Below are positions 1 through 60,126 of a stretch of 64,000 nucleotides of DNA, in pieces. The notes below the pieces were generated by a model that made no database searches, was not told the origin of the DNA, and worked only from the letters and a program-made list of their open reading frames with translations. Made by a program: the position numbers and the translations under genes. How positions within the stretch are numbered: the first letter of the stretch is position 1; each line of letters opens with the position of its first letter. The stretch covers positions 21,365-85,364 of the forward strand of contig JBEEMW010000070.1 of assembly GCA_041192445.1 (NCBI GenBank), read 5' to 3'. The DNA is from Pseudomonadota bacterium. Lineage in GTDB: Bacteria > Pseudomonadota > Gammaproteobacteria > Burkholderiales > Burkholderiaceae_C.

Positions 1-2299
1 GCGCGGGCGGCGCTTTTTGAGCAGGTACCGGCGAGCTTGCAAAAGCCGAATAATCCCGACCAAATTGGCCCTTAGCCCCCGAGTAGCCTGCGTAGTCAGC
101 TCCTGAATTAATAGCACCTGCTGCGCCAGAACCGAAGCCCCTGGCTTTGGGCGTGAGCCACTTGAGCGCCGATTCAGGCAGCTCATCAAAAAACCGGCTC
201 CGCACGTTGTAACGGGTTTGCCCATGCAACATGCGGGTTTGTGAGTGGCTCAGGTACAGGCGCTGGCGGGCGCGGGTAATGGCCACGTACATCAGGCGGC
301 GCTCTTCCTCCAGACCATCATGGTCGCTCATGGAGTTTTCATGGGGGAACAGGCCCTCCTCCATGCCGGTGATGAACACGCAATCAAACTCCAGGCCCTT
401 GCTGGAGTGCACCGTCATGAGCTGAATGGCGTCTTGCCCGGCCTGCGCCTGGTTGTCGCCGGCCTCCAGGGCCGCATGGGTGAGGAAGGCGACGAGCGGA
501 GAAAGTGTCTCACCGGTTTCAGTATCCGGGAAATCCGTTCGCACTGAGCTTGTCGAAGTGCCCGCAAGGTCTTCGACAGGACCCGTCCTGAGCCCGCCGA
601 AGGGCTCAGGCTGAACGGGATTTGCGGTTGCTCCCAGCTCATCCACCGGCAAAGCCACGGCGTCACGACCAAACCCTTCGAGAGAAACAAAACTCTCTGC
701 CGCGTTCACCAGCTCCTCCAGATTCTCGACGCGGTCAGCGCCTTCGCGATCGGCCCGGTAGTGCTCAATCAGGCCGCTGTGGTCCAGCACCAACTCGATG
801 ATTTCACGCAAGGTCATGCCTTGGGTCTGTTCGCGCAACACCTCGATTTTGGCCAGAAATGCACCAATATTGGTGCCAGCCTTGCCGCTGACACCGCTCA
901 CGGCGTCACTCAGCGAACACCCGCTGACCCGTGCCACGTCCTGCAACTGCTCCAGGCTGCGAGTGCCAATGCCACGGGGTGGGAAATTCACAGCCCGCAG
1001 AAAACTCGTGTCATCTCGCGGGTTCTCCAGCAGGCGCAGGTAGGCCAGCGCATTTTTAATCTCGGCCCGCTCAAAAAAGCGTAAACCACCGTACACCTTG
1101 TAGGGCATGGCGGCATTGAACAATGCGGTCTCAATCACCCGGCTCTGCGCATTGCTGCGGTACAGCACGGCAATCTCCTTGCGCGCCATGCCTTCTCGCA
1201 CCAACTGGCGCATTTCATCCACCATCCATTGCGCCTCGGCCAGGTCACTGGCGGACTCATACACACGCACCGGCTCACCGGGGCCTTGATCGGTACGCAG
1301 GTTTTTGCCCAGTCGCCTGGTGTTGTGGCTGATCAGTTCATTGGCGGAATCCAGGATATTGCTGTAGCTGCGGTAGTTTTGCTCCAGCTTGATCTGGTGC
1401 TGCACACCAAACTCACGCACAAAATCGGCCATGTTGCCGACCCGCGCACCGCGAAAGGCGTAGATGCTCTGATCATCATCCCCCACCGCCAGCACACTGC
1501 CGGTCGGACTGAAACTGGCCGCGTCAAGCCCGGAACCACCCGCACCAGTGCCTGCCAGCATCTTGATCCAGGCATATTGCAGCTTGTTGGTATCCTGAAA
1601 TTCGTCGATCAAAATGTGGCGAAAACGGCGCTGGTAGTGTTCACGAATGGGGTCGTTGTCGCGCAGCACCTCAAAGCTGCGCAACATCAACTCACCAAAA
1701 TCCACCACGCCCTCGCGCTGACACTGGTCTTCGTAGAGTTGATAAATCTCGATTTTCTTGCGTGTTTCTTCATCACGCACCTCCACCATATTGGGCCGCA
1801 GGCCATCCTCCTTGCAACCGCCAATGAACCACTGCGTCTGCTTGGGTGGAAACCGCTCGTCGTCGATGTTGAATTGTTTGTACAGGCGTTTGATGGCACT
1901 GAGCTGATCCTGTGTGTCCAGAATCTGAAACGCCTGCGGCAGGTTGGCCATTTTGAAATGTGAACGCAGAAACCGGTTGCACAGTCCGTGAAACGTGCCA
2001 ATCCACATGCCACGCACATTGATTGGCAACATGGCCGAGAGGCGCGTCATCATCTCCTTGGCCGCCTTGTTTGTGAACGTGACCGCCATCACACCGCCGG
2101 GTGAAACCTGCCCCGTTTGCAGCAGCCAGGCGATGCGGGTGGTGAGCACGCGGGTCTTGCCAGAGCCCGCGCCGGCAAGAATGAGGGCATGTTCGGCCGG
2201 CAAGGTCACTGCGGCGCGCTGCTCGGGGTTCAGGGTGCCGAGAAGCGGGGATTGGGTGGCGTCGGGCGACGCATCAAATAACGAAGGGGCAAGAGTCAT
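1..2299 (-). CDS. uvrD: DNA helicase II (UvrD/PcrA family); the C-terminus runs off the window start
   Basis: Hand translation of the minus strand from the ATG at 2299 gives MTLAPSLFDASPD...LNPEQRAAVTLPAEHALILAGAGSGKTRVLTTRIAWL (Walker A), ILIDEFQDTN and VGDDDQSIYAFRGA. There is no stop before position 1, so it is missing from the ORF track, which lists closed ORFs only. Confidence 0.9.
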   Translation of the reverse strand, partial: MTLAPSLFDASPDATQSPLLGTLNPEQRAAVTLPAEHALILAGAGSGKTRVLTTRIAWLLQTGQVSPGGVMAVTFTNKAAKEMMTRLSAMLPINVRGMWIGTFHGLCNRFLRSHFKMANLPQAFQILDTQDQLSAIKRLYKQFNIDDERFPPKQTQWFIGGCKEDGLRPNMVEVRDEETRKKIEIYQLYEDQCQREGVVDFGELMLRSFEVLRDNDPIREHYQRRFRHILIDEFQDTNKLQYAWIKMLAGTGAGGSGLDAASFSPTGSVLAVGDDDQSIYAFRGARVGNMADFVREFGVQHQIKLEQNYRSYSNILDSANELISHNTRRLGKNLRTDQGPGEPVRVYESASDLAEAQWMVDEMRQLVREGMARKEIAVLYRSNAQSRVIETALFNAAMPYKVYGGLRFFERAEIKNALAYLRLLENPRDDTSFLRAVNFPPRGIGTRSLEQLQDVARVSGCSLSDAVSGVSGKAGTNIGAFLAKIEVLREQTQGMTLREIIELVLDHSGLIEHYRADREGADRVENLEELVNAAESFVSLEGFGRDAVALPVDELGATANPVQPEPFGGLRTGPVEDLAGTSTSSVRTDFPDTETGETLSPLVAFLTHAALEAGDNQAQAGQDAIQLMTVHSSKGLEFDCVFITGMEEGLFPHENSMSDHDGLEEERRLMYVAITRARQRLYLSHSQTRMLHGQTRYNVRSRFFDELPESALKWLTPKARGFGSGAAGAINSGADYAGYSGAKGQFGRDYSAFASSPVPAQKAPPA
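62..117 (-). repeat. ~55-bp dispersed repeat (forward orientation on the minus strand), inside the uvrD C-terminal tail
   Basis: The reverse complement gtgctattaattcaggagctgactacgcaggctactcgggggctaagggccaattt matches the copy at 49315-49372 at 40/56 positions, ungapped and hand-counted. It is read in frame as GAINSGADYAGYSGAKGQF. Confidence 0.8.
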
Positions 2300-2434: not shown

Positions 2435-3412
2435 ATGGAAATCTTTGATTACGACAACATTTTGCTGCTGCCACGCAAATGCCGCGTGGAGAGCCGCTCG
2501 GAATGCGACGCCAGCGTGGAGCTTGGTGGCAGGCGTTTTCGTATCCCCGTTGTCCCTGCAAACATGAAAACGGTGGTGGATGAATCCATTTGTGTCTGGC
2601 TGGCGCAAAACGGCTATTTTTACGTGATGCACCGGTTTGACCTGGACAATGTGCAGTTCGTGAAGGACATGAAGGCCAAAGGACTCTTCGCGTCGATTTC
2701 GCTGGGTGTCAAAAAGCCGAACTACGCAACCGTCGATCAATTGCTGGGCCTGGGTTTGATTCCCGAATACGTCACCATCGACATCGCGCACGGCCATGCC
2801 GACAGCGTGAAAGACATGATTGGCTATCTCAAGGAAAAAATGCCGTCCACCTTCATCATCGCGGGCAATGTGGCTACACCCGAAGCCGTGATTGATCTGG
2901 AAAACTGGGGCGCTGATGCGACCAAGGTCGGCATTGGCCCTGGCAAGGTGTGCATCACCAAACTCAAGACCGGTTTTGGCACGGGCGGCTGGCAACTGTC
3001 GGCAGTAAAGTGGTGCGCGCGCGTGGCGACCAAACCCATCATTGCGGACGGTGGCATTCGGGACCACGGCGACATTGCCAAGAGTATTCGTTTCGGTGCC
3101 ACCCTGGTCATGATTGGCTCTCTCTTCGCGGGGCACGAAGAATCACCGGGCAAAACCGTAGAAGTGGATGGCAAGCTGTTCAAGGAATACTACGGCTCGG
3201 CCAGTGACTTCAACAAAGGCGAGTACAAACACGTTGAAGGCAAGCGCATCCTGGAGCCCATCAAAGGCAAGCTGGCCGACACGCTGGTCGAGATGGAGCA
3301 GGACGTGCAAAGCTCCATCAGCTACTCCGGTGGCAAAAAACTGATGGATATCCGCAAGGTGAATTACGTTACCCTGGGCGGGGACAACGCGGGCGAACAC
3401 TTGCTGATGTAG
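2435..3412 (+). CDS. guaC: GMP reductase
   Basis: 325-aa ORF starting [16 protein letters not shown]...VVPANMKTV, with [11 protein letters not shown] and a 'GGIR..GDIAK' IMPDH/GMPR-family barrel. Length fits the GuaC type. Confidence 0.9.
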
Positions 3413-8843: not shown

Positions 8844-9179
8844 ATGAACGACACTTTGAAGAAAAAAGACTGGTCAGCCCTTGCCAGACGTGCGTTGACA
8901 GCTACTGAAATCATAGCGAATCTGGCTAAACTGGAAGGCTGGACGCTCACTGGAGACGGGGCGTCCATCGCCATTGAAAAGACCTATCCGTTCAAAAATT
9001 ACTATCAGACGATGGCGTTCGTCAATGCCGTTGCCTTCATCGCGCATGTTCAGGACCACCATCCGGATTTGTCGGTGCATTACAGCCGCTGTGTCGTGCG
9101 TTTCAACACACATGACGTCGGCGGCATTTCGGTGACCGACTTTGAATGCGCCACCCAGATTGACGCGCTAATCACATGA
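8844..9179 (+). CDS. phhB: Pterin-4a-carbinolamine dehydratase
   Basis: 111 aa, with the LEGWTL...IEKTYPFKNYYQTMAFVNAVAFIAHVQDHHPDL...THDVGGIS pattern typical of the PCD/DCoH family. Confidence 0.85.
   Translation: MNDTLKKKDWSALARRALTATEIIANLAKLEGWTLTGDGASIAIEKTYPFKNYYQTMAFVNAVAFIAHVQDHHPDLSVHYSRCVVRFNTHDVGGISVTDFECATQIDALIT
8864..8921 (-). repeat. 55-bp repeat copy (forward on the minus strand) inside the phhB N-terminal coding region
   Basis: cagcccttgccagacgtgcgttgacagctactgaaatcatagcgaat matches the 30973-31028 copy at 32/47 and the reverse complement of the 21084-21137 copy at 33/47 (ungapped, hand-counted). It uses unusual AT-rich or rare codons (aga, aca, act, ata). Confidence 0.55.
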
Positions 9180-10108
9180 GCGAGGTCCGGGCCACCCTCG
9201 AAAAGGGATTGATCGTGGCCAACTATGGCCGCCATTTTCTGGTCGAAACGCCAGAAGGCCGGCGTCTGATCTGCCACCCGCGTGGCAAGAAAAGCCAAGT
9301 GGTCGTGGGTGACCGCGTGTTGTGGCAGGCCAGCCAGGACGAAGGCACGATCGAAAAAATTGAAGACCGGCGCAACCTTTTCTACCGGCAAGACGAGATT
9401 CGCACCAAGTCGTTTGCGGCTAACCTGGATCAGGTTTTGATACTGGTCGCGGCCGAGCCCGAGTTCTCAAGCAGCCAGCTGTCGCGTGCCCTCATCGCCG
9501 CTGAGGCGGAGCACATTACCCCCATCATTGCACTCAACAAGAGTGATCTGGTAGACCCCTTTGCCCGCGCCTGGGAATGGCTGTTGCCCTACCGTCACAT
9601 GCACTATGGCGTGTTGCCACTGTCTTTAAAGCAATCGGGTGAAGTGGACCGTGCCGAACTGCTCAAACACCTGAAAGGCAAAACGACCCTGGTTCTGGGG
9701 CCGTCGGGGGCGGGGAAAAGCACACTGATCAACCTGTTGGCACCCGGCTCATTGGCCCAGACCGGCGAGATTTCACAGGCTCTGAACTCCGGCAAACACA
9801 CAACGACCAGTACCACCTGGTATTGGGTCGACACTGAGAGAACCACAGCCCTGATTGACTCTCCGGGGTTCCAGGAATTTGGCCTCAACCATATCGATCC
9901 GGCGCAACTGGCCGCTTACATGCCCGACATAAAACCCCATGTGGCCAACTGCAAGTTTTACAACTGCACGCACCTGCACGAACCAGGCTGCGGCGTGATG
10001 GCTGCCGTCAATTCAACAGAATCGGGCCCCAGCCCTGATGGAATAAGCGCAAACCGCTACAAAATTTATAGCGAACTGTTTGCTGAGCTGAAACAGTCAA
10101 AATATTGA
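9176..10108 (+). CDS. rsgA: Ribosome small-subunit-dependent GTPase A
   Basis: LNKSDL, GPSGAGKSTLINLL, and the zinc-knuckle CKFYNCTHLHEPGCGV. The ATG overlaps the phhB stop (ATGA). Confidence 0.92.
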   Translation: MSEVRATLEKGLIVANYGRHFLVETPEGRRLICHPRGKKSQVVVGDRVLWQASQDEGTIEKIEDRRNLFYRQDEIRTKSFAANLDQVLILVAAEPEFSSSQLSRALIAAEAEHITPIIALNKSDLVDPFARAWEWLLPYRHMHYGVLPLSLKQSGEVDRAELLKHLKGKTTLVLGPSGAGKSTLINLLAPGSLAQTGEISQALNSGKHTTTSTTWYWVDTERTTALIDSPGFQEFGLNHIDPAQLAAYMPDIKPHVANCKFYNCTHLHEPGCGVMAAVNSTESGPSPDGISANRYKIYSELFAELKQSKY

Positions 10109-14711: not shown

Positions 14712-15158
14712 ATGAAAAACAAAACTGCCGCTGCATGGCTCGCATTTGTAGGCGGCCCTCTGGGTCTGCACCGGTTTTATTTGGCGGGGTTTGGTGATCT
14801 GTTGGGATGGTTATTGCCAATTCCCACGGCTCTGGGCTTGTATGGCGTTCAGCGGATGCAAAGTCTTGGCGTCGATGACGAATGGGCCTGGATTTTGATT
14901 CCCCTGCTGGGATTCACCATCGCAGGCTGCGCCCTCACCGCAATCGTCTACGGATTGATGACCCCGGAAAAGTGGAACGCCAAGTTCAACATTCACGCCT
15001 CGCCGGACGCGCCTGCCGGAGAAACCCACTGGTTAACGATAGGGGCAGTGGTGTTCGCACTGCTTGTTGGATCGACCGTTTTGATGTCGTCCATCGTGTT
15101 CAGTTTTCAACGCTATTTTGAGCACCAAATTGAGGAAGCGCGCAAGATTTCTCAATGA
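14712..15158 (+). CDS. TM2 domain-containing membrane protein
   Basis: AAWLAFVGGPLGLHRFYLAGFGD is a TM2-domain signature, and further TM segments follow. The ATG abuts the upstream stop. Confidence 0.7.
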   Translation: MKNKTAAAWLAFVGGPLGLHRFYLAGFGDLLGWLLPIPTALGLYGVQRMQSLGVDDEWAWILIPLLGFTIAGCALTAIVYGLMTPEKWNAKFNIHASPDAPAGETHWLTIGAVVFALLVGSTVLMSSIVFSFQRYFEHQIEEARKISQ

Positions 15159-15213
15159 AAAAGGCCTTTAGCCCCCGTCAATATTGCGCGGGTAGCTACT
15201 ATTTCGATAGCAT
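15158..15213 (-). repeat. 55-bp dispersed repeat filling the spacer between the convergent TM2 and PiT genes
   Basis: The reverse complement is gatgctatcgaaatagtagctacccgcgcaatattgacgggggctaaaggcc. It has strong similarity to the 49315-49372 copy, including both the ATGCTA...TAGCT and ACGGGGGCTAA.GGCC modules. Confidence 0.85.
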
Positions 15214-19734: not shown

Positions 19735-19790
19735 AAATATGGTTCCAGCCCTCGTCAACAGGGCGTGAATAGCTATTTATTTAATAGCAC
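19735..19790 (-). repeat. 55-bp dispersed repeat in the acnB upstream spacer, overlapping the 3' end of the upstream gene
   Basis: The reverse complement ggtgctattaaataaatagctattcacgccctgttgacgagggctggaaccatattt matches the 49315 copy at 38/57 ungapped positions. The TAA stop at 19777-19779 lies inside it. Confidence 0.8.
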
Positions 19791-20271
19791 CTTCAACAGG
19801 TGCTGCGGGTTTGGCATCCAGCACACTGGCCGGTGGCGCCTTCAGCATGGCTTGGGCAACTTGTTCTTGCGACGGGCTCATGCACCCATCGTTCAGACGC
19901 TGGCCCAGCTTTTGATTCATCAACATCGATTTATTCGCCAGTTGCAGCCAGACCACGCCTGCTGCCTTGTCCTCCAGGCGAATCGCTCCGGTGGTAGTTT
20001 GTTCGGGCGACACCCGGTAATTCACGTTGCGAGCCCGCAAATTGAAAAAACCCGGCGCGCCGGGATCGGCCTGCAAAACCACCACACCGCCGTGTTCACA
20101 GGGCAAATTGCCCACGTGGACGCGTTGCGCAATTTCCAGTTCGGCAGGCGTCAAAACGGCCTTGATGTCCACCCGGCCGGCTTTAGACTGCGCCGCCACA
20201 CCGCCATACACAAGCGTGAGCAGGACCAAGGCGAACAGGCGAAAAAGAGGGGTTGAAGCGGGTGTGGTCAT
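19777..20271 (-). CDS. Hypothetical secreted protein (N-terminal signal peptide)
   Basis: MTTPASTPLFRLFALVLLTLVYGGVAAQ signal-like N-terminus. I recognise no family. The last four codons (GAIK) and the stop come from the repeat. Confidence 0.55.
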   Translation of the reverse strand: MTTPASTPLFRLFALVLLTLVYGGVAAQSKAGRVDIKAVLTPAELEIAQRVHVGNLPCEHGGVVVLQADPGAPGFFNLRARNVNYRVSPEQTTTGAIRLEDKAAGVVWLQLANKSMLMNQKLGQRLNDGCMSPSQEQVAQAMLKAPPASVLDAKPAAPVEGAIK

Positions 20272-20305: not shown

Positions 20306-21346
20306 TCAGTGGCCAGGGACATCAAAATAGGCCCTGACCCCGGATGGCAATGCCCTGCCCGTATGATGCGCCCGCTCCAGCGTCTGCCAAAAATAGCGAT
20401 AGCTGGCCCGGTCATGCAGGCGCCCCCCAAAGCTGATGGGAGCCCATGCCACACCTTCGGCTTTCAGAATAATTTCTGAAGCCATTTCAATGTCAAGCTC
20501 GTCCGGCATGAACGCCGCAATAATCGGGCGGATCTGGTCAGGGTGAATGCTCCACATGCGCTGATAACCCATTTCTCGCGCCGCCTGTCGGGCCGCGGCA
20601 CGCAATACTGCCGTGTCCTTGAACTCGGTCACCACGCAATGCGACGGCACCTTGCCATGCGCATGGCAAGCCGATGCGATCTCCAGCTTGGCCCGCACCA
20701 CCAGCGGATGGCTGAACTGCCCCGCGCCCGACATACCCTCAGCGGGAATGGCCCCGGCATGTGCAGACACAAAATCCATGAGTCCAAAACTGATGGACTG
20801 CACACGCGGATGGGCTGCAATATCAAACGCCCGGTGCACGGCAGCGGGTGATTCGATCAGCACGTGTAGCGGCAATTGGCTGCCCGCAGGGCCCGGCCAT
20901 GCGCGATCAACAGCCTTGACCGCACGATCCACATCTGCGACGGACTCAACCTTGGGAATCATCAGGTGGCACAGCGCTGCACCAGCTTTGCCAACAACGG
21001 TGGCCACATCCTGCTCAAACAACGGATGGTCCACCGGGTGAACCCGCACAGCCACCCGGGCTGCTGCAGAATTCTTGACATTTGCTATGTTTTTTGTAGC
21101 TAATCGTGCATGATTGGCGAGGGCTGCAACCATATTGGCATGGTCAAGCTCACCCCCAACCGGTGCACCATCCTCACAATCCAGCGTGACATCAAAGACA
21201 CACACACCGAACTCTTCGGTCATCTCGGCCTGCAATGCCAAGCTCTTGCGCATCCGCGCCTCAACACCACTGTAATGGTCACACACCGGCAAGAAACCGG
21301 CGGATGCCTGGGCACCCATCAGTGCGTCGCGTGGATGCATGACCAT
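20306..21346 (-). CDS. HpcH/HpaI aldolase / citrate lyase beta-subunit (CitE)-like protein
   Basis: FDVTLDCEDGAP and LIESPAAV...ISFGLMDF resemble the CitE / malyl-CoA lyase-like fold; this is a family-level call only. The start is trimmed to the ATG at 21346, downstream of the mdh stop. Confidence 0.6.
   Translation of the reverse strand: MVMHPRDALMGAQASAGFLPVCDHYSGVEARMRKSLALQAEMTEEFGVCVFDVTLDCEDGAPVGGELDHANMVAALANHARLATKNIANVKNSAAARVAVRVHPVDHPLFEQDVATVVGKAGAALCHLMIPKVESVADVDRAVKAVDRAWPGPAGSQLPLHVLIESPAAVHRAFDIAAHPRVQSISFGLMDFVSAHAGAIPAEGMSGAGQFSHPLVVRAKLEIASACHAHGKVPSHCVVTEFKDTAVLRAAARQAAREMGYQRMWSIHPDQIRPIIAAFMPDELDIEMASEIILKAEGVAWAPISFGGRLHDRASYRYFWQTLERAHHTGRALPSGVRAYFDVPGH
21084..21137 (+). 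repeat. 55-bp repeat copy inside the CitE-like gene (antisense to the coding strand)
   Basis: ttgctatgttttttgtagctaatcgtgcatgattggcgagggctgcaaccatattg matches the reverse complement of the 30973-31028 copy at 39/56, and the first 10 nt are identical. It is translated as VAALANHARLATKNIANV. Confidence 0.7.
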
Positions 21347-21357
21347 TAACTTGCCGC

Positions 21358-22344
21358 TCAAAGCAGGTGGGCAACTCCGGCCTGCTCGTCCTGCAATTCC
21401 TTGAGCGTCTTGTTGATGCATTCCTGGCTGAACGCATCCACCGTCAGGCCTTCAACCGGTTTGTACTCGCCACCTTCGCAGGTCACGGCAAAACCAAACA
21501 TCACATCTTTCGGGATGCCGTATTGGCCGTCGGACGGGATGCCCATGGTGACCCACTTGCCATTCGTGCCCAGCGCCCAGTCGCGCATGTGGTCGATGGC
21601 CGCATTGGCAGCCGATGCGGCAGATGACACCCCACGCGCTTCAATGATGGCCGCACCACGCTTGCCCACGGTCGGCAGGAAGGTGTTGGCGTTCCAGTCA
21701 TGGTCGTTGATCATGTCCTTGACGCCGGCACCATTGATGGTGGCAAAACGGTAGTCGGGGTACATGGTTGGGGAGTGATTGCCCCACACCACCAGTTTTT
21801 CGATATCCGCAACTGCCTTGCCAGTCTTGCTGGCCAATTGGCTCAGGGCGCGATTGTGATCCAGGCGCAGCATGGCGGTGAAATTTTTGCGCGGCAGATC
21901 GGGCGCGCTCTTCATCGCGATGTAGGCGTTGGTGTTGGCGGGATTGCCTACGACCAGCACCTTGACGTTGCGGCTTGCAACGGCGTTGAGCGCCTTGCCT
22001 TGAGCCGTAAAGATCTGGGCGTTCACAGCCAGCAACTCGGCACGCTCCATGCCGGGGCCACGAGGGCGTGAACCGATCAGCAAGGCGTAATCCACGTCCT
22101 TGAACGCGGTCATCGGGTCGCCATGGGCTTCCATGCCCACGAGCAACGGGAAGGCACAGTCCTGCAATTCCATCATCACGCCCTTGAGCGCTTTTTGAGG
22201 CCCTTCAACGGGCACTTCAAGCAATTGCAATATCACAGGCTGGTCTTTGCCAAGCATTTCGCCTGAGGCAATGCGAAAAAGAATGGCGTAACCAATTTGG
22301 CCTGCTGCACCAGTAACGGCAACGCGGACGGGCTTTTTGCTCAT
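21358..22344 (-). CDS. mdh: Malate dehydrogenase
   Basis: [32 protein letters not shown]...[10 protein letters not shown]. The start is trimmed to the ATG at 22344. Confidence 0.95.
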
Positions 22345-30972: not shown

Positions 30973-31028
30973 AAATTGGCTTACAGCCCCCGTGAAACGG
31001 GCGTTAGTAGCTATAAATAACATAGCAA
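30973..31028 (-). repeat. 55-bp dispersed repeat filling the leuD-leuB spacer
   Basis: The reverse complement ttgctatgttatttatagctactaacgcccgtttcacgggggctgtaagccaattt matches the 49315 copy at 38/56 ungapped positions. Confidence 0.85.
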
Positions 31029-36332: not shown

Positions 36333-37118
36333 GTGAGGCTGGCGCTAGGCATTAGCTACAACGGTCAGGCTTACCAGGGCTGGCAAAGTCAGCTGTCCGG
36401 TTTGACCGTTCAGGACAAGCTTGAAGCGGCGCTGGGCAAATTCACCGGTGTGCCACGCGTGTCCACTTTGTGCGCCGGCCGTACGGATGCCGGTGTGCAC
36501 GGCCTGATGCAAGTCATCCATTTCGACACGGATCTGGTGCGCGACACCAACGCCTGGGTGCGCGGTACCAATGCCCATTTGCCCCGCGACATTGCCGTGC
36601 AGTGGGCGCATGAAGTTCCCAGAGAATTTCACTGCCGCGCCAGTGCTGTGTCCCGTCGTTACGCCTATATTTTGCTGGACTCGCCGGTGCGCCCCAGTGT
36701 GGATGCGGGCCGGGTCGGCTGGGTGTTTAAAACACTAGACTTGCACACGATGCAACAGGCGGCCAGCCATCTAATTGGGGAGCACGACTTTTCGTCGTTT
36801 CGCGCCTCGGCGTGCCAGGCACTTTCACCCGTGAAGAACCTGCTTCACATCAGCATCACGCAGCGCGGAGCCTATTGGCGCTTTGAATTCGAGGCGAATG
36901 CCTTCCTGCACCACATGATTCGCAACATCATGGGCTGCCTGGTCGCCATAGGCCAGGGCAAATACCCGCCGCAATGGATTCTGGACGTGCTCGCCGCGCG
37001 AGACCGCGATGCCGCCGCTCCGACCTTTTCACCAGACGGTTTGTACTTTCTGGGCCCGCGCTACGAAGCCCATTGGGGTTTACCGGACCGCACGCCTGCG
37101 TATGATGGGCTGCCATGA
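36333..37118 (+). CDS. truA: tRNA pseudouridine(38-40) synthase
   Basis: RLALGISYNGQAYQGWQ...CAGRTDAGVHG (catalytic Asp motif). GTG start at 36333. Confidence 0.93.
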   Translation: MRLALGISYNGQAYQGWQSQLSGLTVQDKLEAALGKFTGVPRVSTLCAGRTDAGVHGLMQVIHFDTDLVRDTNAWVRGTNAHLPRDIAVQWAHEVPREFHCRASAVSRRYAYILLDSPVRPSVDAGRVGWVFKTLDLHTMQQAASHLIGEHDFSSFRASACQALSPVKNLLHISITQRGAYWRFEFEANAFLHHMIRNIMGCLVAIGQGKYPPQWILDVLAARDRDAAAPTFSPDGLYFLGPRYEAHWGLPDRTPAYDGLP

Positions 37119-37834
37119 ACACGACGCCTTTAAAAGCCCAACGCACCCGAATCAAGATTTGCGGATTGACCCGTGAACAGGACGTGGATGCGGCTGTGGC
37201 CGCCGGGGCGGATGCGGTCGGTTTTGTGCTCTATGACAAAAGCCCGCGCTACGTCCCCATCGAGCGGGCGGCTGAACTGGCCCGCCGACTGCCACCTTTC
37301 GTCACCCCCGTGTTGCTGTTCGTTAACGAGACTGCTATTAAAATAATAGCTGCTTGTGCACATATTCCGGGGGCTACAACCCAATTTCATGGTGATGAAA
37401 CACCTGAACAGTGCCAGGAGGCCACCCTGCAAGGCACCCGCGCCTACCTGCGTGCGGCGCGCATTCCGCTGGGGGATGGCGCTGCCAGCTTTGACCTCGT
37501 AAAATACGCACAAGATTACTCAAACGCCCAGGCCATATTGCTCGACGCACATGTTGAGGGTTATGGCGGCGGCGGCAAGGTTTTTAATTGGTCACTTCTT
37601 CCTCCAAGCGTCAACGTTCACCTCGTCTTGAGTGGTGGGCTGAGTGCTGCAAACGTGGCCGACGGCATTTTGCAGGTGCGGCCGCGTTGTAAAACGCTGG
37701 CCGTAGATGTCAGTTCCGGTGTCGAATCCTCCAAGGGGATCAAGGACATCGACAAAATCAACCGCTTCGTCGCTGCCGTTCGCGCAGCCGACAGGCAATT
37801 CGAAAACCTTGCGGGACAGACCAAGACGCCATGA
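37115..37834 (+). CDS. trpF: Phosphoribosylanthranilate isomerase
   Basis: RIKICGLTREQDVDAAVAAGADAVGFVLYDKSPRYV...QFHGDE...YGGGGKVFNWSLL...LSGGL...AVDVSSGVE. The ATG overlaps the truA stop (ATGA). Confidence 0.93.
   Translation: MNTTPLKAQRTRIKICGLTREQDVDAAVAAGADAVGFVLYDKSPRYVPIERAAELARRLPPFVTPVLLFVNETAIKIIAACAHIPGATTQFHGDETPEQCQEATLQGTRAYLRAARIPLGDGAASFDLVKYAQDYSNAQAILLDAHVEGYGGGGKVFNWSLLPPSVNVHLVLSGGLSAANVADGILQVRPRCKTLAVDVSSGVESSKGIKDIDKINRFVAAVRAADRQFENLAGQTKTP
37334..37387 (+). repeat. 55-bp repeat copy in frame inside trpF
   Basis: gctattaaaataatagctgcttgtgcacatattccgggggctacaacccaattt matches the era-proximal copy at 38/54 ungapped, and the 49315 copy at about 74% with small gaps. It contains a perfect 7-bp inverted repeat, GCTATTA-aaa-TAATAGC, and rare codons (ata ata tgt). 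Confidence 0.8.
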
Positions 37835-37876
37835 GCAACGCGAATGAGTTTGCTCTGTCCTCAACTGATCAAAATC

Positions 37877-39214
37877 ATGAACACCTACCAACAGCCTGAT
37901 GCGTCAGGCCACTTCGGAATTTACGGCGGCAGCTTTGTCTCGGAGACATTGACCCACGCCATCAACGAACTCAAAGCCGCTTACGCCCAGTACCAGAACG
38001 ACCCGGCCTTTATCGCCGAGTTCGAGTCTGAGCTGGCGCATTTTGTCGGCCGCCCCTCCCCGGTCTACCATGCGGCCCGCATGAGCCGCGAAATGGCAGA
38101 CGAAAAAAATGGAGGTAGAGGCCACGGCGCGCAAATCTTCCTCAAACGAGAAGACCTCAACCACACCGGTGCCCACAAGGTCAACAACACCATCGGCCAG
38201 GCCATGTTGGCCAAACGCATGGGCAAGCCGCGCGTGATCGCCGAAACCGGAGCCGGCCAGCACGGCGTAGCCACCGCCACCATCTGCGCCCGCTACGGGC
38301 TGGAATGTGTGGTCTACATGGGCAGCGAAGACGTAAAGCGCCAGAGCCCCAACGTTTATCGCATGAAACTGCTCGGTGCCACCGTGGTGCCCGTGGAGAG
38401 CGGCAGCAAGACGCTGAAAGACGCACTCAACGAGGCCATGCGCGACTGGGTGGCCAATGTGGACAACACTTTCTACATCATCGGCACGGTGGCCGGGCCT
38501 CATCCCTATCCGATGATGGTGCGCGACTTCCAGAGTGTGATTGGCAAGGAATGTCTGGTGCAGATGCCCGAGATGCTCAAAGCCCAGGGCTGCACCAACG
38601 ACCAGCCCGACGCGGTGATTGCCTGTGTCGGTGGCGGCAGCAATGCCATGGGCATCTTCTACCCCTACATCAACCACGCCAACACGCGCCTCATCGGTGT
38701 GGAGGCAGCAGGTGAAGGCCTGGACAGCGGCAAACACTCGGCATCGCTGCAGAAGGGTAGCCCTGGCGTGTTGCATGGCAACCGCACCTATGTGCTACAG
38801 GACGATAACGGCCAGGTGACCGAGACGCACAGCATCAGCGCAGGCCTGGACTACCCTGGTGTCGGCCCCGAGCACGCCTTCCTCAAGGATATTGGCCGGG
38901 CGGAATACGTCGGCATCACCGACAAGGAGGCGCTGGAAGCCTTCCATTACCTGTGTCGTACCGAGGGCATCATCCCCGCGCTCGAGTCCAGCCATGCCGT
39001 GGCCTACGCGATGAAGCTGGCCAAAACCATGCGCACCGACCAGTCAATTCTGGTCAACCTGTCCGGTCGGGGTGACAAGGACATTGGCACGGTAGCCGAC
39101 CTGAGCAACGCCGACTTTTACTGCCGCCCCAGTTGCAAGGGACAAGCCATTAAAGGCGGGGCCATGAACCTGGAGCAACCTGTGCAGGTGATCAAGGCGG
39201 GAGCATCAGCATGA
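37877..39214 (+). CDS. trpB: Tryptophan synthase beta chain
   Basis: [15 protein letters not shown]...[16 protein letters not shown] (PLP Lys)...GGGSNAMG...[11 protein letters not shown] at 37877. The C-terminal extension is unusually long. Confidence 0.95.
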
Positions 39215-43770: not shown

Positions 43771-44881
43771 GCGTCACCGGCACACGCAAGTCGTCCAGAT
43801 AGTCCTGGGCAATGTTCACCGTACCCGCGACACCCAGCGCGTTGTAGTGCCTTCTCAACCAGGCCTTCGCACTCGCCTGACCCAGATCGCGTAGAGCGTG
43901 AATCAGACTGGCGCTGGTCGATGTTTTGGTGGACGCAGAAAAGGCCTCCAGCGCCTCACCCCCATCAATGCGGTGCATCAAAACGTCTTTGTAGGATGTG
44001 GCGTCCAGTTTGCCCTCGGCCAGCAAGCGTTTCACAAAATCGATGGCGCGCATCTCGGCAATCAAGCCGGCGTTAAACGTGATCTCGTTCATGCGGTCCA
44101 TGATCTCTGCACCCGTCGTAGGCAGCTTGTCGCGCTTGATCGGGTTGATCTGCACCAGCAGGATGTCGCGGCTTTGGCAGTTGTAGATCAATGGATGAAT
44201 AGCGGGGTTGCCTGAGAAGCCGCCATCCCAAAAGTGGTCACCTTCAATCTCGACCGCCTGAAACATCATGGGCAGGCAGGCCGATGCCATGACAGCATCG
44301 GCTGTCAGGCGCTTGCCCGAGAACACCTCGGCCTTGCCCGTAGACACGCGGGTTGCCACAACAAACACCTTGAGCGTTTTGAGCTGGGACAGGTGCTCAA
44401 AGTCGACCTGCCGCTCCAAAAACTGGCGCAATGGGTTGATATCAAACGGATTGCTTTGGTAAGGTGACACCGTTTGTGACCAGAAACTGGTCATCGCACT
44501 GGCCCATGCAGCAGTCGCAGAGTTGTCGGCACTGCCCTGCCCAAACAGCACATCAAATGGCCCCCGCTGCGCCTCGGACAACGCACCCATGTCAACAATG
44601 CCGTTCCAGAACCTCGCCAGGGCTTCGCGCGCCGCTTCCCGGGGGTCAGACCGGGCATTTCCGTGGGCCTGGGCAAACCCGTGCCCCAGCGCCACCGCAT
44701 TCATTGCCCCGGCGCTGGTGCCACTGATGCCTTCGATGGCGACACGGCCATCTTCAAGTAAAGCGTCCAGCACGCCCCAGGTGAAAGCACCGTGCGAACC
44801 ACCCCCCTGAAGTGCCAGGTTGACACTGGGTAAACTACCCGCAGATTGCCGGCCAGGAATAGGCTTGTTGATTGTGTTCAT
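43760..44881 (-). CDS. Patatin-like phospholipase family protein
   Basis: GGGSHGAFTWGVLDALLE (oxyanion Gly-rich loop), GTSAGAMNA (GxSxG nucleophile), DGGFSGNPA (catalytic Asp). Confidence 0.85.
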   Translation of the reverse strand: MNTINKPIPGRQSAGSLPSVNLALQGGGSHGAFTWGVLDALLEDGRVAIEGISGTSAGAMNAVALGHGFAQAHGNARSDPREAAREALARFWNGIVDMGALSEAQRGPFDVLFGQGSADNSATAAWASAMTSFWSQTVSPYQSNPFDINPLRQFLERQVDFEHLSQLKTLKVFVVATRVSTGKAEVFSGKRLTADAVMASACLPMMFQAVEIEGDHFWDGGFSGNPAIHPLIYNCQSRDILLVQINPIKRDKLPTTGAEIMDRMNEITFNAGLIAEMRAIDFVKRLLAEGKLDATSYKDVLMHRIDGGEALEAFSASTKTSTSASLIHALRDLGQASAKAWLRRHYNALGVAGTVNIAQDYLDDLRVPVTLKP

Positions 44882-44965
44882 ATCCAGAGGTTAGCAAGAA
44901 TTGCCGATAACCACCCATAGCGACGTCCAGCACCATTTTTGTCCCGCCAAAACCCAGTTACAAGC

Positions 44966-45391
44966 ATGAAGAACATCTGGCATCCGCGACTTCACCTGTT
45001 CAGAAATTCGTCTCATCTGATGCGCTGCCTGGCAGGGCTGTTTTGCGGTGTGCTTTTAATGACGGCCTGCGCCCAGGACGCGACAAACGCACCGGTTATG
45101 GCGCTGCCGGGCAGTGGCAGCACGCATCAGGTGGGCACCGCCCCCACACAGGCTATTCGGGTCATCGTGCAATTCAAGCAGGTTGTGCCCTACAGCAGCA
45201 GCGCGTTCCTGATGGACATGAAGGTGCAAACCCAGGCCAATGTCAGCTACATTGCTGCGGTGTCCGGTGATACCCATGTCTACGGCATTCAGCCGCTGCC
45301 GGGACAAACCATCACCCAAGTGCTCCAGCGTCTGGGCAATATGCCCGTTGTGCGCCGGGTTGAGGTCGATCAGCAGATGAAATTCCAATAA
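44966..45391 (+). CDS. Small secreted or lipoprotein resembling a stand-alone subtilase propeptide (inhibitor I9-like)
   Basis: Signal/lipobox-like LLMTAC. RVIVQFKQVV...VSYIAAVSGDTHVY...LQRLGNMPVVRRVEVDQ parallels the propeptide of the downstream S8 protease (RLIIKFKDQA...LSYLKSI...HVAL...LAQDPRVEYAEIDE). The start is ambiguous: 44939 TTG, 44966 ATG or 45020 ATG. Confidence 0.55.
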   Translation: MKNIWHPRLHLFRNSSHLMRCLAGLFCGVLLMTACAQDATNAPVMALPGSGSTHQVGTAPTQAIRVIVQFKQVVPYSSSAFLMDMKVQTQANVSYIAAVSGDTHVYGIQPLPGQTITQVLQRLGNMPVVRRVEVDQQMKFQ

Positions 45392-49314: not shown

Positions 49315-49372
49315 ATGCTACAAAATAAATAGCTGCTCACGCATATTCTACGGGGGCTAAGGGCCAATTTTC
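49315..49372 (+). repeat. 55-bp dispersed repeat (my reference copy) occupying the acpS-nagZ junction
   Basis: atgctacaaaataaatagctgctcacgcatattctacgggggctaagggccaatttt. The acpS stop (49357-49359) and its last 4-5 codons lie inside it, and it ends 5 nt from the nagZ ATG. Confidence 0.85.
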
Positions 49373-51424: not shown

Positions 51425-52456
51425 TCATTCGTACCCGAATGAGCGAACCCGGGCTTCATCATCCGCCCAACCCGAGCGCACCTTGACCCACATCTCGATG
51501 AACACTTTCGCGTCCAGGAGTTTCTCAAGCTCAACCCGCGTCTCGGTACCAATACGTTTGATGCGTTCGCCCTTGTCACCAATCACCATGGCTTTATGGG
51601 TGTCGCGCTCCACCACGATGGTGGCGGCGATCTTCAGCAGGCGCTTTTGTTTGCCACGTCCGGCCTCTTCCTCGAACTTGTCGATCACCACGGTGGAGGT
51701 GTAGGGCAGCTCGTCGCCTGTCAGGCGAAAGAGTTTTTCGCGCACCGTCTCGCTGGCCAGAAATTTCTCGCTGCGGTCGGTGAGTTCGTCTTCGGCATAA
51801 CGCCAAGCTTGTTCGGGCAGGTATTTTTCGCAAATGCCCAGCAATCGTTCGATATCTTTGGCGTTCTTGGCCGACATCGGCACAAACTCGTTAAAGGCGT
51901 GGCGCTGGTGCATCTCTTGCAACCACGGTGCGATGTCGGCCCGGCGGTTGACCTGGTCAAGCTTGTTGGCCACCAACAGGGTGGGAATGTCTTTGCCCAA
52001 CAGCGCCAGAACCTTGGCATCGGCCTGGTTGAACATGCCTGCTTCGACCACAAACAAAATCAGGTCCACGTCGCCGACAGCACCTTTCACGGTTTTATTC
52101 AAGGCGCGGTTCAAGGCGTTGTTGTGACGGGTCTGAAAGCCTGGTGTGTCGACGAACACAAATTGTGTCGCCCCCAGCGTGTGCATGCCGGTGATGCGGT
52201 GGCGCGTGGTTTGGGCCTTGCGTGAGGTGATGCTGATCTTTTGGCCCACCAGCGCGTTGAGCAAAGTCGATTTGCCAACGTTGGGTTTACCCACGATGGC
52301 AATCAGGCCACAGCGCTGCCCTTCCACGGGCACGCCCGCAGGTGCAGCAACACGCGACTCCCTGAGCAGGCCCTTGAGCATGCCTTCAAGGTCATTTTGG
52401 CCTTCAGCCCCCGTAGCGTCTGCATCAGCAGCTATGGTTTTAGTAGCGTTCATCAT
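51425..52456 (-). CDS. era: GTPase Era (start codon uncertain; the N-terminal ~25 codons are repeat-derived)
   Basis: [21 protein letters not shown] (G1), DTPG, NKLD, and a KH domain at the C-terminus. The alternative ATG at 52381 would give a more canonical length. Confidence 0.9.
52394..52449 (-). repeat. 55-bp dispersed repeat at the rnc-era junction
   Basis: The reverse complement acgctactaaaaccatagctgctgatgcagacgctacgggggctgaaggccaaaat matches the 49315 copy at 42/56 ungapped positions. Confidence 0.88.
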
Positions 52457-59496: not shown

Positions 59497-60126
59497 CTAG
59501 CGGTTGGGCACCTCAAACGTGGCATTGCGTAAAAACCCCGCCGGCATCTGCAAGGCCGACGTGCCGCCAAACTGCTTGTGCGCCGCCAGCAACTCGTCCA
59601 GGCGCGGGTCACGAATCATGACCGGCGGCTGCCCTGCCACCACGGCGACAGACTCGGTGGCCATCCCTGCCCCCGCGAGAGTCGTACCGGGCGAAACGGT
59701 GCCGGGGCCATTCACAACACCCCAGCCCAGCACCGCCACGGCTGTGACTGACGCCAGTCCGGCCACCAGCTGCCATCGAAAGCGGGAGGCATTGGCACCC
59801 TCTTGTTTGATGCCATTCAGGTCATTAACCCTCGTATTCATTGCGCTAACAGCTATTAATACAGGAGCATCTACCGTTTGCAGGGGGATGGCCTCGCGTT
59901 GCAGGCGTTGCTGCAGACGTGCCACAAAATCCAGATCACCGGCGCTGCCCAAGGCATCCCCGGATCGGAGTACGTCGCCGACCACGTGGTAGGCGTGCCA
60001 AGTGGCCCGGGCATCGACATCCATACTGACTGTTTCAGCCACTACGGCGAATTCATTCCCGCGCAACTGCCCATCGGCCAGGGCCGACACCATTTCGCGG
60101 ATTTTCAAAGTGTCTTGCATCATCAT
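59497..60126 (-). CDS. rseA: Anti-sigma-E factor RseA/MucA-like
   Basis: REMVSALADGQLRGNEF...ARATWHAYHVVGDVLRS (RseA N-terminal domain), with a single TM segment WQLVAGLASVTAVAVLGW. Confidence 0.85.
   Translation of the reverse strand: MMMQDTLKIREMVSALADGQLRGNEFAVVAETVSMDVDARATWHAYHVVGDVLRSGDALGSAGDLDFVARLQQRLQREAIPLQTVDAPVLIAVSAMNTRVNDLNGIKQEGANASRFRWQLVAGLASVTAVAVLGWGVVNGPGTVSPGTTLAGAGMATESVAVVAGQPPVMIRDPRLDELLAAHKQFGGTSALQMPAGFLRNATFEVPNR
59815..59870 (-). repeat. 55-bp repeat copy in frame inside rseA (cytoplasmic linker just before the TM segment)
   Basis: The reverse complement atgctcctgtattaatagctgttagcgcaatgaatacgagggttaatgacctgaat matches the 49315 copy at 35/56 ungapped positions. 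It is translated as DAPVLIAVSAMNTRVNDLN. Confidence 0.7.

Follow-up and report, generated by a model that had tools for sequence, protein, structure and literature searches.

How can a short repeat that is scattered through a bacterial genome encode part of the core of an essential enzyme? The question is raised by trpF (phosphoribosylanthranilate isomerase, PRAI; 239 aa, positions 37115-37834, plus strand) in the 64,000-nucleotide stretch of contig JBEEMW010000070.1 that was analysed here in full and is called the window. The open reading frame (ORF) was assigned through PF00697 and PDB 1lbm (E=2e-35). It lies in the gene order truA (36333-37118)-trpF-trpB-trpA-accD, which is common to relatives, and its product has its closest named homologues in Rhodoferax metagenome-assembled genomes (MAGs); the window stems from a Rhodoferax-like bacterium of the Comamonadaceae. 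All TrpF homologues match PF00697, and C16 and D144, which we take to be the equivalents of T. maritima C7 and D126, are invariant in the TrpF alignment. Within this gene, positions 37334-37387 (plus strand) read AIKIIAACAHIPGATTQF in frame and resemble a dispersed family of DNA motifs. It is fairly probable (roughly 0.6) that trpF holds an ancient copy of this family which has since been constrained both as protein and as a DNA motif, the motif acting on double-stranded DNA with a factor that some lineages have lost.

The initial annotation had recognised the trpF stretch as a family member, and profile and matrix searches bear this out. By BLASTN, five further copies in the window are 68-73% identical to the stretch over 51-63 nt, and another two, which are weaker, are 62-66% identical; a repeat finder likewise recovered window copies. 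An nhmmer profile built from nine other window copies scored the trpF stretch at 42.1 bits (E=2.8e-12), and a profile built from only four strictly intergenic copies returned it as the best match outside the training set (36.3 bits, E=2.2e-10). Eighty metagenome loci were retrieved by a degenerate pattern and 96 of their copies were used to make a 54-column matrix. Pattern searches followed by profile searches gave 11 family copies in the window, and the matrix separates them from all other positions: the 11 copies score 32.6-71.4 bits and the next-best position 4.6, with trpF, at 60.9 bits, third of the 11. As nothing lies between 5 and 32 bits, the copies were not made by point mutation in place, and gradual evolution of the motif at each site was ruled out on this ground.

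Chance resemblance, or ordinary ancestral coding sequence that happens to look like the family, can be regarded as already refuted. Shared Ala, Gly and Gln-Phe codons explain some of the identity, but the E value of 2.2e-10 was obtained with a profile blind to the trpF copy, the score of 60.9 bits stands against the background maximum of 4.6, and it is at synonymous third positions and in rare codons that the two agree. Most orthologues spell a similar peptide with unrelated GC-rich codons. The initial annotation had itself raised the prospect of ancestral sequence with ordinary codons, and this fails, since an orthologue has the motif spelled with these rare codons or else GC-rich codons unrelated to it.

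The family consensus is tTGCTAttaATTTaATAGCTGCTtgCGCA..tTctACGGGGGCTAGAGgCC.ATTTgat, with a motif length of about 54-60 nt, and its blocks stand at fixed spacing (GCTAY-N7-RTAGCTGC..GCGCA-N8-CGRGGGCTAGAGGCC.ATTT), a layout found in the trpF copy. There, the 5' inverted repeat GCTAT-N7-ATAGC with its AT-rich spacer occupies 37334-37350 (plus strand; GCTAY and RTAGCT were imposed by the metagenome search pattern), and the conserved blocks ATAGCTGCTTGTGCA and CGGGGGCTAC lie within 37346-37377 (plus strand). Both GCTAY and TAGC are kept in 10 of the 11 window copies, and all 11 are single units. Only the GCTAT/ATAGC pair at the 5' end forms an inverted repeat; the two ends of the motif, GCTAT... 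and ...CCAATTT, do not. The fold energy of the consensus is no better than -4 kcal/mol for one strand and -1.7 for its complement, and mutual information between columns of 103 copies does not exceed 0.24, with no helix beyond the fixed GCTAT/ATAGC pair. Rfam gave no window match at gathering score, and no credible one around two copies even with E relaxed to 10. No promoter-like site was seen in trpF, and its one terminator-like site is not above the shuffled-sequence count. The consensus strings were not found in the literature searched. The motif also occurs three times on the 32-kb Rhodoferax antarcticus plasmid NZ_CP019241 (L207), where the copy at 3261-3317 starts 9 nt past a stop codon and has no annotated feature beneath it.

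In the protein, the trpF copy is alpha-3, the following turn and beta-4 of the barrel, with zero added length. The segment lies exactly between FVNE and QFHGDE, as had been stated at the outset, and its HMMER alignment to T. maritima TrpF (1lbm/1nsj) is free of gaps, with FVNETAIKIIAACAHIPGATTQFHGDE opposite FVNEEPEKILDVASYVQLNAVQLHGEE. The claim that the protein is not lengthened holds: FVNE through FHGDE spans 81 nt in 79 of 80 orthologues, taken from trpF loci on one-genome-per-species contigs. The accompanying count of 17 residues against 16 in the canonical enzyme does not, since the distance from FVNE to QxHG is 17 residues both in the window and in T. maritima. An AlphaFold2 model (pLDDT, the predicted local confidence, about 95 over the block) places a helix at 74-83, the turn IPGA and a strand at 88-91, which agrees with solved TrpF structures and with the helix-strand that the initial annotation had proposed. 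The model superposes on solved PRAI structures with TM scores of 0.80-0.83 (normalised to the target), 1nsj giving 0.80. The Brachymonas orthologue (L051) is 12 nt longer and reads the element's ...CGATTT end, then TGCTTA, then native CAATTTCATGG; in the other motif-bearing orthologues the CC.ATTT end of the element falls on the Gln-Phe codons. This arrangement is compatible with insertion followed by deletion between ATTT repeats, or with a separate event.

The DNA spelling of the segment is conserved along with the peptide. Its GC content is about 0.42 compared to 0.58 across the window, and the richness in rare codons stated in the initial annotation was confirmed: ATA, which occurs twice in succession, makes up 3% of Ile codons, and GCT, GGG and ACA make up 12% of Ala, 11% of Gly and 13% of Thr codons, respectively. 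In 15 motif-bearing orthologues, whose TrpF proteins differ by about 25%, third codon positions of the conserved blocks match the family consensus and not genome codon usage, and the fraction of AT-ending codons at conserved residues is 0.79 in the segment vs 0.36 elsewhere in the gene. Individual codons are kept as ATA (14/14), GCT (12/15), GCA (9/12), GGG (8/12) and GCT (11/14), and at the 3' end as CAA TTT CAT (15/15), GGT or GGA (15/15) and GAT (11/14). Directly 3' of the motif, HGDE (37388-37399, plus strand) is spelled CAT GGT GAT GAA. These AT-ending codons are conserved with the motif and are near the AT-richest possible spelling, though they lie outside the family's conserved columns; Comamonadaceae without the motif have mixed codons here. 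The HGDE codons may mimic the AT-rich 3' flank of the family. Residue 78 is Ile, encoded by the ATA within ATAGCT, in 14 of the 15 motif-bearing proteins, and mostly Gln, Arg, Glu, Asp or Ala in the other orthologues.

Between the blocks, the sequence drifts. Paralogous window copies are 77% identical in their conserved blocks and 36% in their spacers, and the spacers of the trpF copy are 54% identical across orthologues. The spacer divergence among paralogues argues against whole-tract gene conversion and for constraint on each copy; homogenisation by gene conversion was therefore judged unlikely.

The fate of the trpF spelling follows that of the family in the rest of the genome. Loci with a motif-bearing trpF hold 17 other family copies in 176 kb, other Comamonadaceae loci three weak copies in 425 kb, and outgroup loci none in 309 kb, so that rare motif-type codons in trpF persist only in genomes that retain other family copies. 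Two further genomes, represented by a Ga0558075 contig (L208/L209) and an ERZ1744392 contig (L210/L211), have a gene order in common with the window over about 40 kb and allow orthologous sites to be compared. Upstream of acnB the copy scores 58.5 bits in the window and 11.1 in L208/L209, with none in L210/L211 (best -30.7). The copy in a lyase gene falls from 47.2 to 5.7 bits and is likewise missing from L210/L211 (best -35.5), where the protein insertion is retained. In the leuD-leuB spacer the scores are 57.6 and 30.4 bits and the L210/L211 spacer is down to about 30 nt, and at trpF they are 60.9, 37.1 and 0.1 bits. Copies at these four orthologous sites are thus kept or lost jointly, genome by genome. 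Such keeping and loss of genic and intergenic spelling alike points to a genome-wide process, either selection or drive.

These observations bear on another account, in which a selfish insertion, a mobile relic comparable to a Rickettsia palindromic element (RPE) and with no role at the DNA level, was tolerated as protein and is slowly decaying. Fixed-frame, in-frame copies across many unrelated genes would be expected of it, the lyase protein insertion outlasts its DNA signal, and searches for a promoter, a terminator, an RNA family or covariation in structure turned up none. However, rare AT-ending synonymous codons have been kept across lineages whose TrpF proteins differ by a quarter, blocks are retained while spacers drift, decay is joint at four orthologous sites in other genomes, and the window has no half-decayed copies, all scoring at least 32 bits against a maximum of 4.6 elsewhere. 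We consider this account improbable.

Matrix scores of the orthologous 54 nt form a continuous range from +64 to -108 bits. Sixteen sequences, including the window, score at least 18, and these come from the window clade, several Rhodoferax and Polaromonas, HGW-Betaproteobacteria-3, Simplicispira, Comamonas badia and Brachymonas. Giesbergeria and one Acidovorax MAG score near zero bits, yet the segment is the best or near-best position of their own locus. In other Comamonadaceae without the motif the segment mostly ranks above the outgroups, the best being in the top 0.06-0.3% of the locus, or 0.004-0.3% when all Comamonadaceae without the motif are taken together, whereas in 29 outgroup loci (Sphaerotilaceae-type genera, Rhodocyclaceae and Oxalobacteraceae), none of which carries the trpF motif, it is only in the top 1-85% of positions. 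Series of decay are seen within Polaromonas and within the Acidovorax/Simplicispira group.

Single-gene neighbour-joining trees of TrpB and of TrpF with the segment masked were poorly resolved, and a concatenate of TruA, TrpB, TrpA and AccD (1231 columns) was used instead. In the resulting neighbour-joining tree, motif-bearing sequences are spread over seven or more separated lineages, which fall on both sides of the Comamonadaceae. Masked-TrpF distances divided by marker distances give 1.47 where both members of a pair have the motif, 1.49 where neither has it and 1.49 for mixed pairs, showing that the trpF gene itself was vertically inherited. Recent horizontal spread of a motif-bearing trpF allele was considered and was ruled out by these equal ratios together with the diverged spacers. 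Copies elsewhere also occupy orthologous sites. A copy downstream of accD is found at one site in four genera, Comamonas badia, Polaromonas, Simplicispira and Acidovorax (L018 9933-9986, plus strand; L024 9890; L009 9640; L019 9757), and the leuD-leuB copy is orthologous in five genomes, which indicates that individual copies are old. Beyond what the initial annotation had proposed, the best reading is that the trpF copy is ancient and vertically inherited and that its DNA spelling has been actively kept.

The scattered distribution could also be explained if the native trpF segment, as the most element-like coding site of the genome, were overwritten independently, by an in-register templated patch, in each lineage with an active family. 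Such recurrent conversion would fit the interleaving of motif and non-motif lineages in the species tree, the Brachymonas junction that is unlike the others, and the copies in GcvP and MurI, which also bring nearly no change in length. Further, non-motif Comamonadaceae are in this segment no farther from outgroups than outgroups are among themselves (0.65 vs 0.63; 0.68 vs 0.66), and native segments have 6-7 of 14 positions in common with the element peptide. We nevertheless consider it rather unlikely, as decay series within clades connect the motif and non-motif states, the accD-downstream and leuD-leuB copies are at orthologous sites across genera and hence old, the spacers of the trpF copy have diverged like those of old orthologues (54% identity), and there is no known mechanism by which a 54-nt unit would be written into a site of about 50% similarity.

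The likeness between the native protein and the element peptide requires either survivorship, similarity-guided conversion, or a family that was itself derived from trpF. Under survivorship, a core helix would be replaceable only where the element peptide mimics the native one. Derivation from a trpF fragment, or a trpF gene that serves as master copy, would account for the consensus spelling AACA..GA..QF, its GCT GCT TGC GCA giving AACA as in TrpF, including that of the outgroups L061, L066 and L038, and for native TrpF matching the consensus peptide far above the proteome background. At the DNA level, however, outgroup trpF segments are only among the top 1-85% of their own loci, and the AT-rich GCTAT-N7-ATAGC is unlike the product of a GC-rich coding ancestor. 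The accD-downstream copy of an Acidovorax MAG has diverged such that its second half forms a GC-rich hairpin with a T-run behind it, resembling an intrinsic terminator, which is a non-coding feature. At the column occupied in trpF by C, G or T (codons for Pro, Ala or Ser), 77% of family copies show A and not one shows C. These non-coding features, and A but never C at the column where the window clade has the C of a Pro codon, make derivation of the family from trpF very unlikely.

The copies in other coding sequences show how the motif can be accommodated. The 117 metagenome copies fall into 56 between genes, 23 that touch the end of a gene and 38 inside predicted ORFs, the last divided into 22 sense and 16 antisense. 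Nearly all share one phase in each orientation (20/22 sense copies, read with GCT as a codon, and 14/16 antisense), as do all four sense copies of the window. In the shared frames the conserved blocks are Ala, Ile and Gly codons (GCT/GCA for Ala, ATA for Ile, GGG-GCT for Gly-Ala), giving the sense peptide A-[IT]-x-x-I-A-A-C-A-x-x-T-G-A-R-G-Q-F and the antisense peptide A-P-V-x-x-A-Q-A-A-I-x-x-I-A. Element peptides found in unrelated host proteins include AIKTVAACAHSTGATS, ATKIIAACAYYTGAMGRFG and AIKTVAACAHSTGATSHID, and some, such as the first of these, are closely similar to the TrpF segment. Compared with solved structures, the copy in GcvP (L125) makes a difference of about one residue and that in MurI (L138) adds three. 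TrpF is grouped with these two proteins, in which length changes little or not at all, and not with the lyase. The window lyase has 11 extra residues at the copy relative to PDB 3r4i, and among its homologues (P0121-P0240) the short form has 38 residues across the region and the long forms mostly 47-51, i.e. +9 to +13. In the long forms the extra stretch is the antisense peptide of the element, and many keep the protein insertion only (e.g. ANEAQAAARKAA).

We infer that the element entered trpF and did not arise there, by patch replacement or by insertion followed by deletion; this direction is inferred rather than proven. Entry in the sense frame would have put a helix rich in Ala, followed by a Gly-Ala turn and a short strand, in the place of alpha-3 and beta-4, and the copy may have been tolerated because the native helix already resembled the element peptide. 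From then on the segment would have been under dual constraint, as protein and as DNA motif. The two orientations relative to transcription and the lack of covariation point to a role on double-stranded DNA, and the motif would depend on a genome-wide factor that several lineages have lost. A more specific proposal, which we put forward tentatively as possible but not probable, is that the family is a double-stranded DNA signal (for example for uptake, the nucleoid or self-marking) read by a trans-acting factor, that its new copies are written by templated patching, a process able to replace helix-coding DNA of similar length, and that trpF, gcvP and murI are dual-coding. If this is true, stretches of the three genes are under selection both for the enzyme core that they encode and for the genomic signal that they carry.

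Several points weigh against an ancient copy under dual constraint. Outgroup TrpF matches the consensus peptide of the element at 6-7 of the 14 defined positions, a level at which only one of about 18,500 other positions in the window proteome (19,571 residues) reaches even 6. Because native and element peptides are so alike, protein distances have no dating power and cannot tell one ancient event from repeated events, and the trees, of 1231 and about 220 columns, are neighbour-joining only. Some circularity enters the codon statistics, since the motif-bearing set was picked by motif similarity; the three codons past the motif and the independence of the lineages are not subject to this. Similarly, the matrix was built on fixed-pattern retrievals, which partly imposes its conserved columns, and gene calls in the metagenome loci come from a simple, crude codon-score caller of our own. 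No empty site was found; in the one filled-versus-empty pair that was compared (L083 17763 against window positions 44850-45060), the intergenic DNA was too diverged to align.

Seven of the 11 window copies are in ORFs: in the UvrD tail, the PhhB N-terminus, the RsgA C-terminal part, the HpcH-type lyase, TrpF, the 5' end of era and an RseA-like linker. The copy at 62-115 (minus strand, 52.3 bits) is sense and in frame (phase 0) in the C-terminal tail of a UvrD/Rep helicase ORF whose Pfam domains finish before it, and that at 59815-59868 (minus, 42.1 bits), again sense and in frame, follows the RseA_N domain in an anti-sigma-E-like ORF. Antisense copies lie over the N-terminal helix of PhhB (pterin-4a-carbinolamine dehydratase; 8864-8917, minus, 32.6 bits), in the C-terminal part of RsgA (10019-10072, minus, a weaker copy with 44.2 bits and an nhmmer E of 1e-4) and in the HpcH/citrate-lyase-like gene (20306-21361, minus), where the copy at 21084-21137 (plus, 47.2 bits) lengthens the protein.

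The remaining sense copy, also in frame, occupies the 5' end of the longest ORF for era, at the rnc-era junction (52394-52447, minus, 53.9 bits), where the start codon is uncertain. Within 52394-52456, the ATGATG at the beginning of this ORF overlaps the stop codon of the upstream gene, taken as rnc, and the frame reads through the family copy; the GTPase domain begins about 45 residues further on. The copy may form a genuine N-terminal extension, or it may belong to a short spacer between rnc and era.

Four copies lie outside these ORFs. One begins 2 nt past a stop codon (15158-15211, minus, 62.5 bits), and the best of the window, also intergenic, is 72.7% identical to the trpF copy (49317-49370, plus, 71.4 bits). 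A third fills the leuD-leuB spacer (30973-31026, minus, 57.6 bits), and its orthologous site is occupied in L081, L083, L085 and L208. The fourth, upstream of acnB (19735-19788, minus, 58.5 bits), has an orthologue that is decayed in L209 and absent in L211. A 164-residue ORF without Pfam match (19777-20271, minus) has its stop codon inside the spacer of this copy (GCT ATT AAA TAA, 19777-19788), so that the copy supplies the final three codons and the stop.

The neighbouring trpB gene has a short AT-rich extra stretch of 10 residues at 38088-38120 that the matrix does not score as a family copy; it is identical in L081, shorter in L083 and missing in L085. The longest trpB ORF begins 33 nt upstream of the start used in L083 and L085 (11 residues before MNTYQQP; 37844-37876), and in these two loci trpB overlaps the end of trpF. 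The true trpB start in the window is probably 37877. Elsewhere, an antisense family copy at the trpB-trpA junction (L001 8087-8145 and L005 8072-8133, both minus strand) seemingly encodes the C-terminal tail of TrpB; in the window trpB and trpA overlap and there is no family copy at their junction.

Rickettsia is the main known source of repeats read in frame within bacterial genes, and the peptides that these add lie at the surface. In the present case, one helix and one strand in the buried core of an essential TIM-barrel enzyme are provided by a dispersed motif and the enzyme keeps its length; GcvP and MurI are apparently similar. The family is thus a test case for how far a constraint other than that on the protein can dictate a protein core, and for what maintains large families of short repeats. 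The plasmid copies in R. antarcticus mean that a cultured species can be used for experiments.

Among described repeats, beta-proteobacterial repeat elements (BRE) are reported from Polaromonas, Rhodoferax, Acidovorax and Delftia, with some copies within coding sequences (Hot et al. 2011; PMC3110155). They are about 90 bp long with 69% GC and are often in tandem (PMC3110155). Identity with BRE was rejected, as the published sequences (TTTGCCGC..GGCCGCCCAAGGCAAAAAAGCCCCC..) contain no ATAGCT and share no block with the motif. REP/BIME and MITE-type repeats (ERIC, Correia, BOX) resemble the family in being short, dispersed, enriched between genes and often flush with gene ends, and ERIC elements are sometimes found inside genes (PMC10969869). 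REP/BIME are extragenic imperfect palindromes that mostly come in inverted pairs, and MITEs have terminal inverted repeats and a target-site duplication. The Comamonadaceae motif differs from them in that its ends are not inverted repeats of one another, in occurring as single units and not inverted pairs, and in that about a third of its copies are in ORFs, many of them in frame.

Uptake sequences have a core of 9-12 bp present about once per kb, can arise by point mutation, and are thought to be kept genome-wide by biased uptake and recombination. Those of the Pasteurellaceae (USS) and Neisseriaceae (DUS) share with the family that they are DNA motifs found in genes in either orientation, leave protein length unchanged, and favour certain reading frames and tolerant protein regions (PMC2817400). 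The Comamonadaceae motif, in contrast, has copies worth 32.6-71 bits across its 54 columns, a density of about one per 5-6 kb (11 in 64 kb) and all-or-none scores.

RPE, originally reported by Ogata et al., are also dispersed short repeats with a conserved peptide compatible with the host fold and with copies at orthologous sites across species. Like the family, they occur both between genes and in frame in unrelated housekeeping genes (reviewed in PMC10969869). At about 100-150 bp they are palindromic throughout and add a peptide segment, whereas the Comamonadaceae motif has 54-60 bp and no covarying structure, its folds of -4 and -1.7 kcal/mol being no match for a whole-element palindrome. 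In TrpF, GcvP and MurI the motif occupies a native helix with 0 to +3 residues (TrpF 0, GcvP about 1, MurI +3), and its spelling is kept or lost genome-wide; of the four hosts compared, the lyase, with +9 to +13, gains a peptide as RPE hosts do. The host clade of RPE is not the Comamonadaceae, and the likeness described here concerns layout and distribution. RPE are the closest known analogue of the family, and uptake sequences the closest for motifs that coexist with coding sequence and leave its length unchanged; the family does not show the full set of defining features of either.

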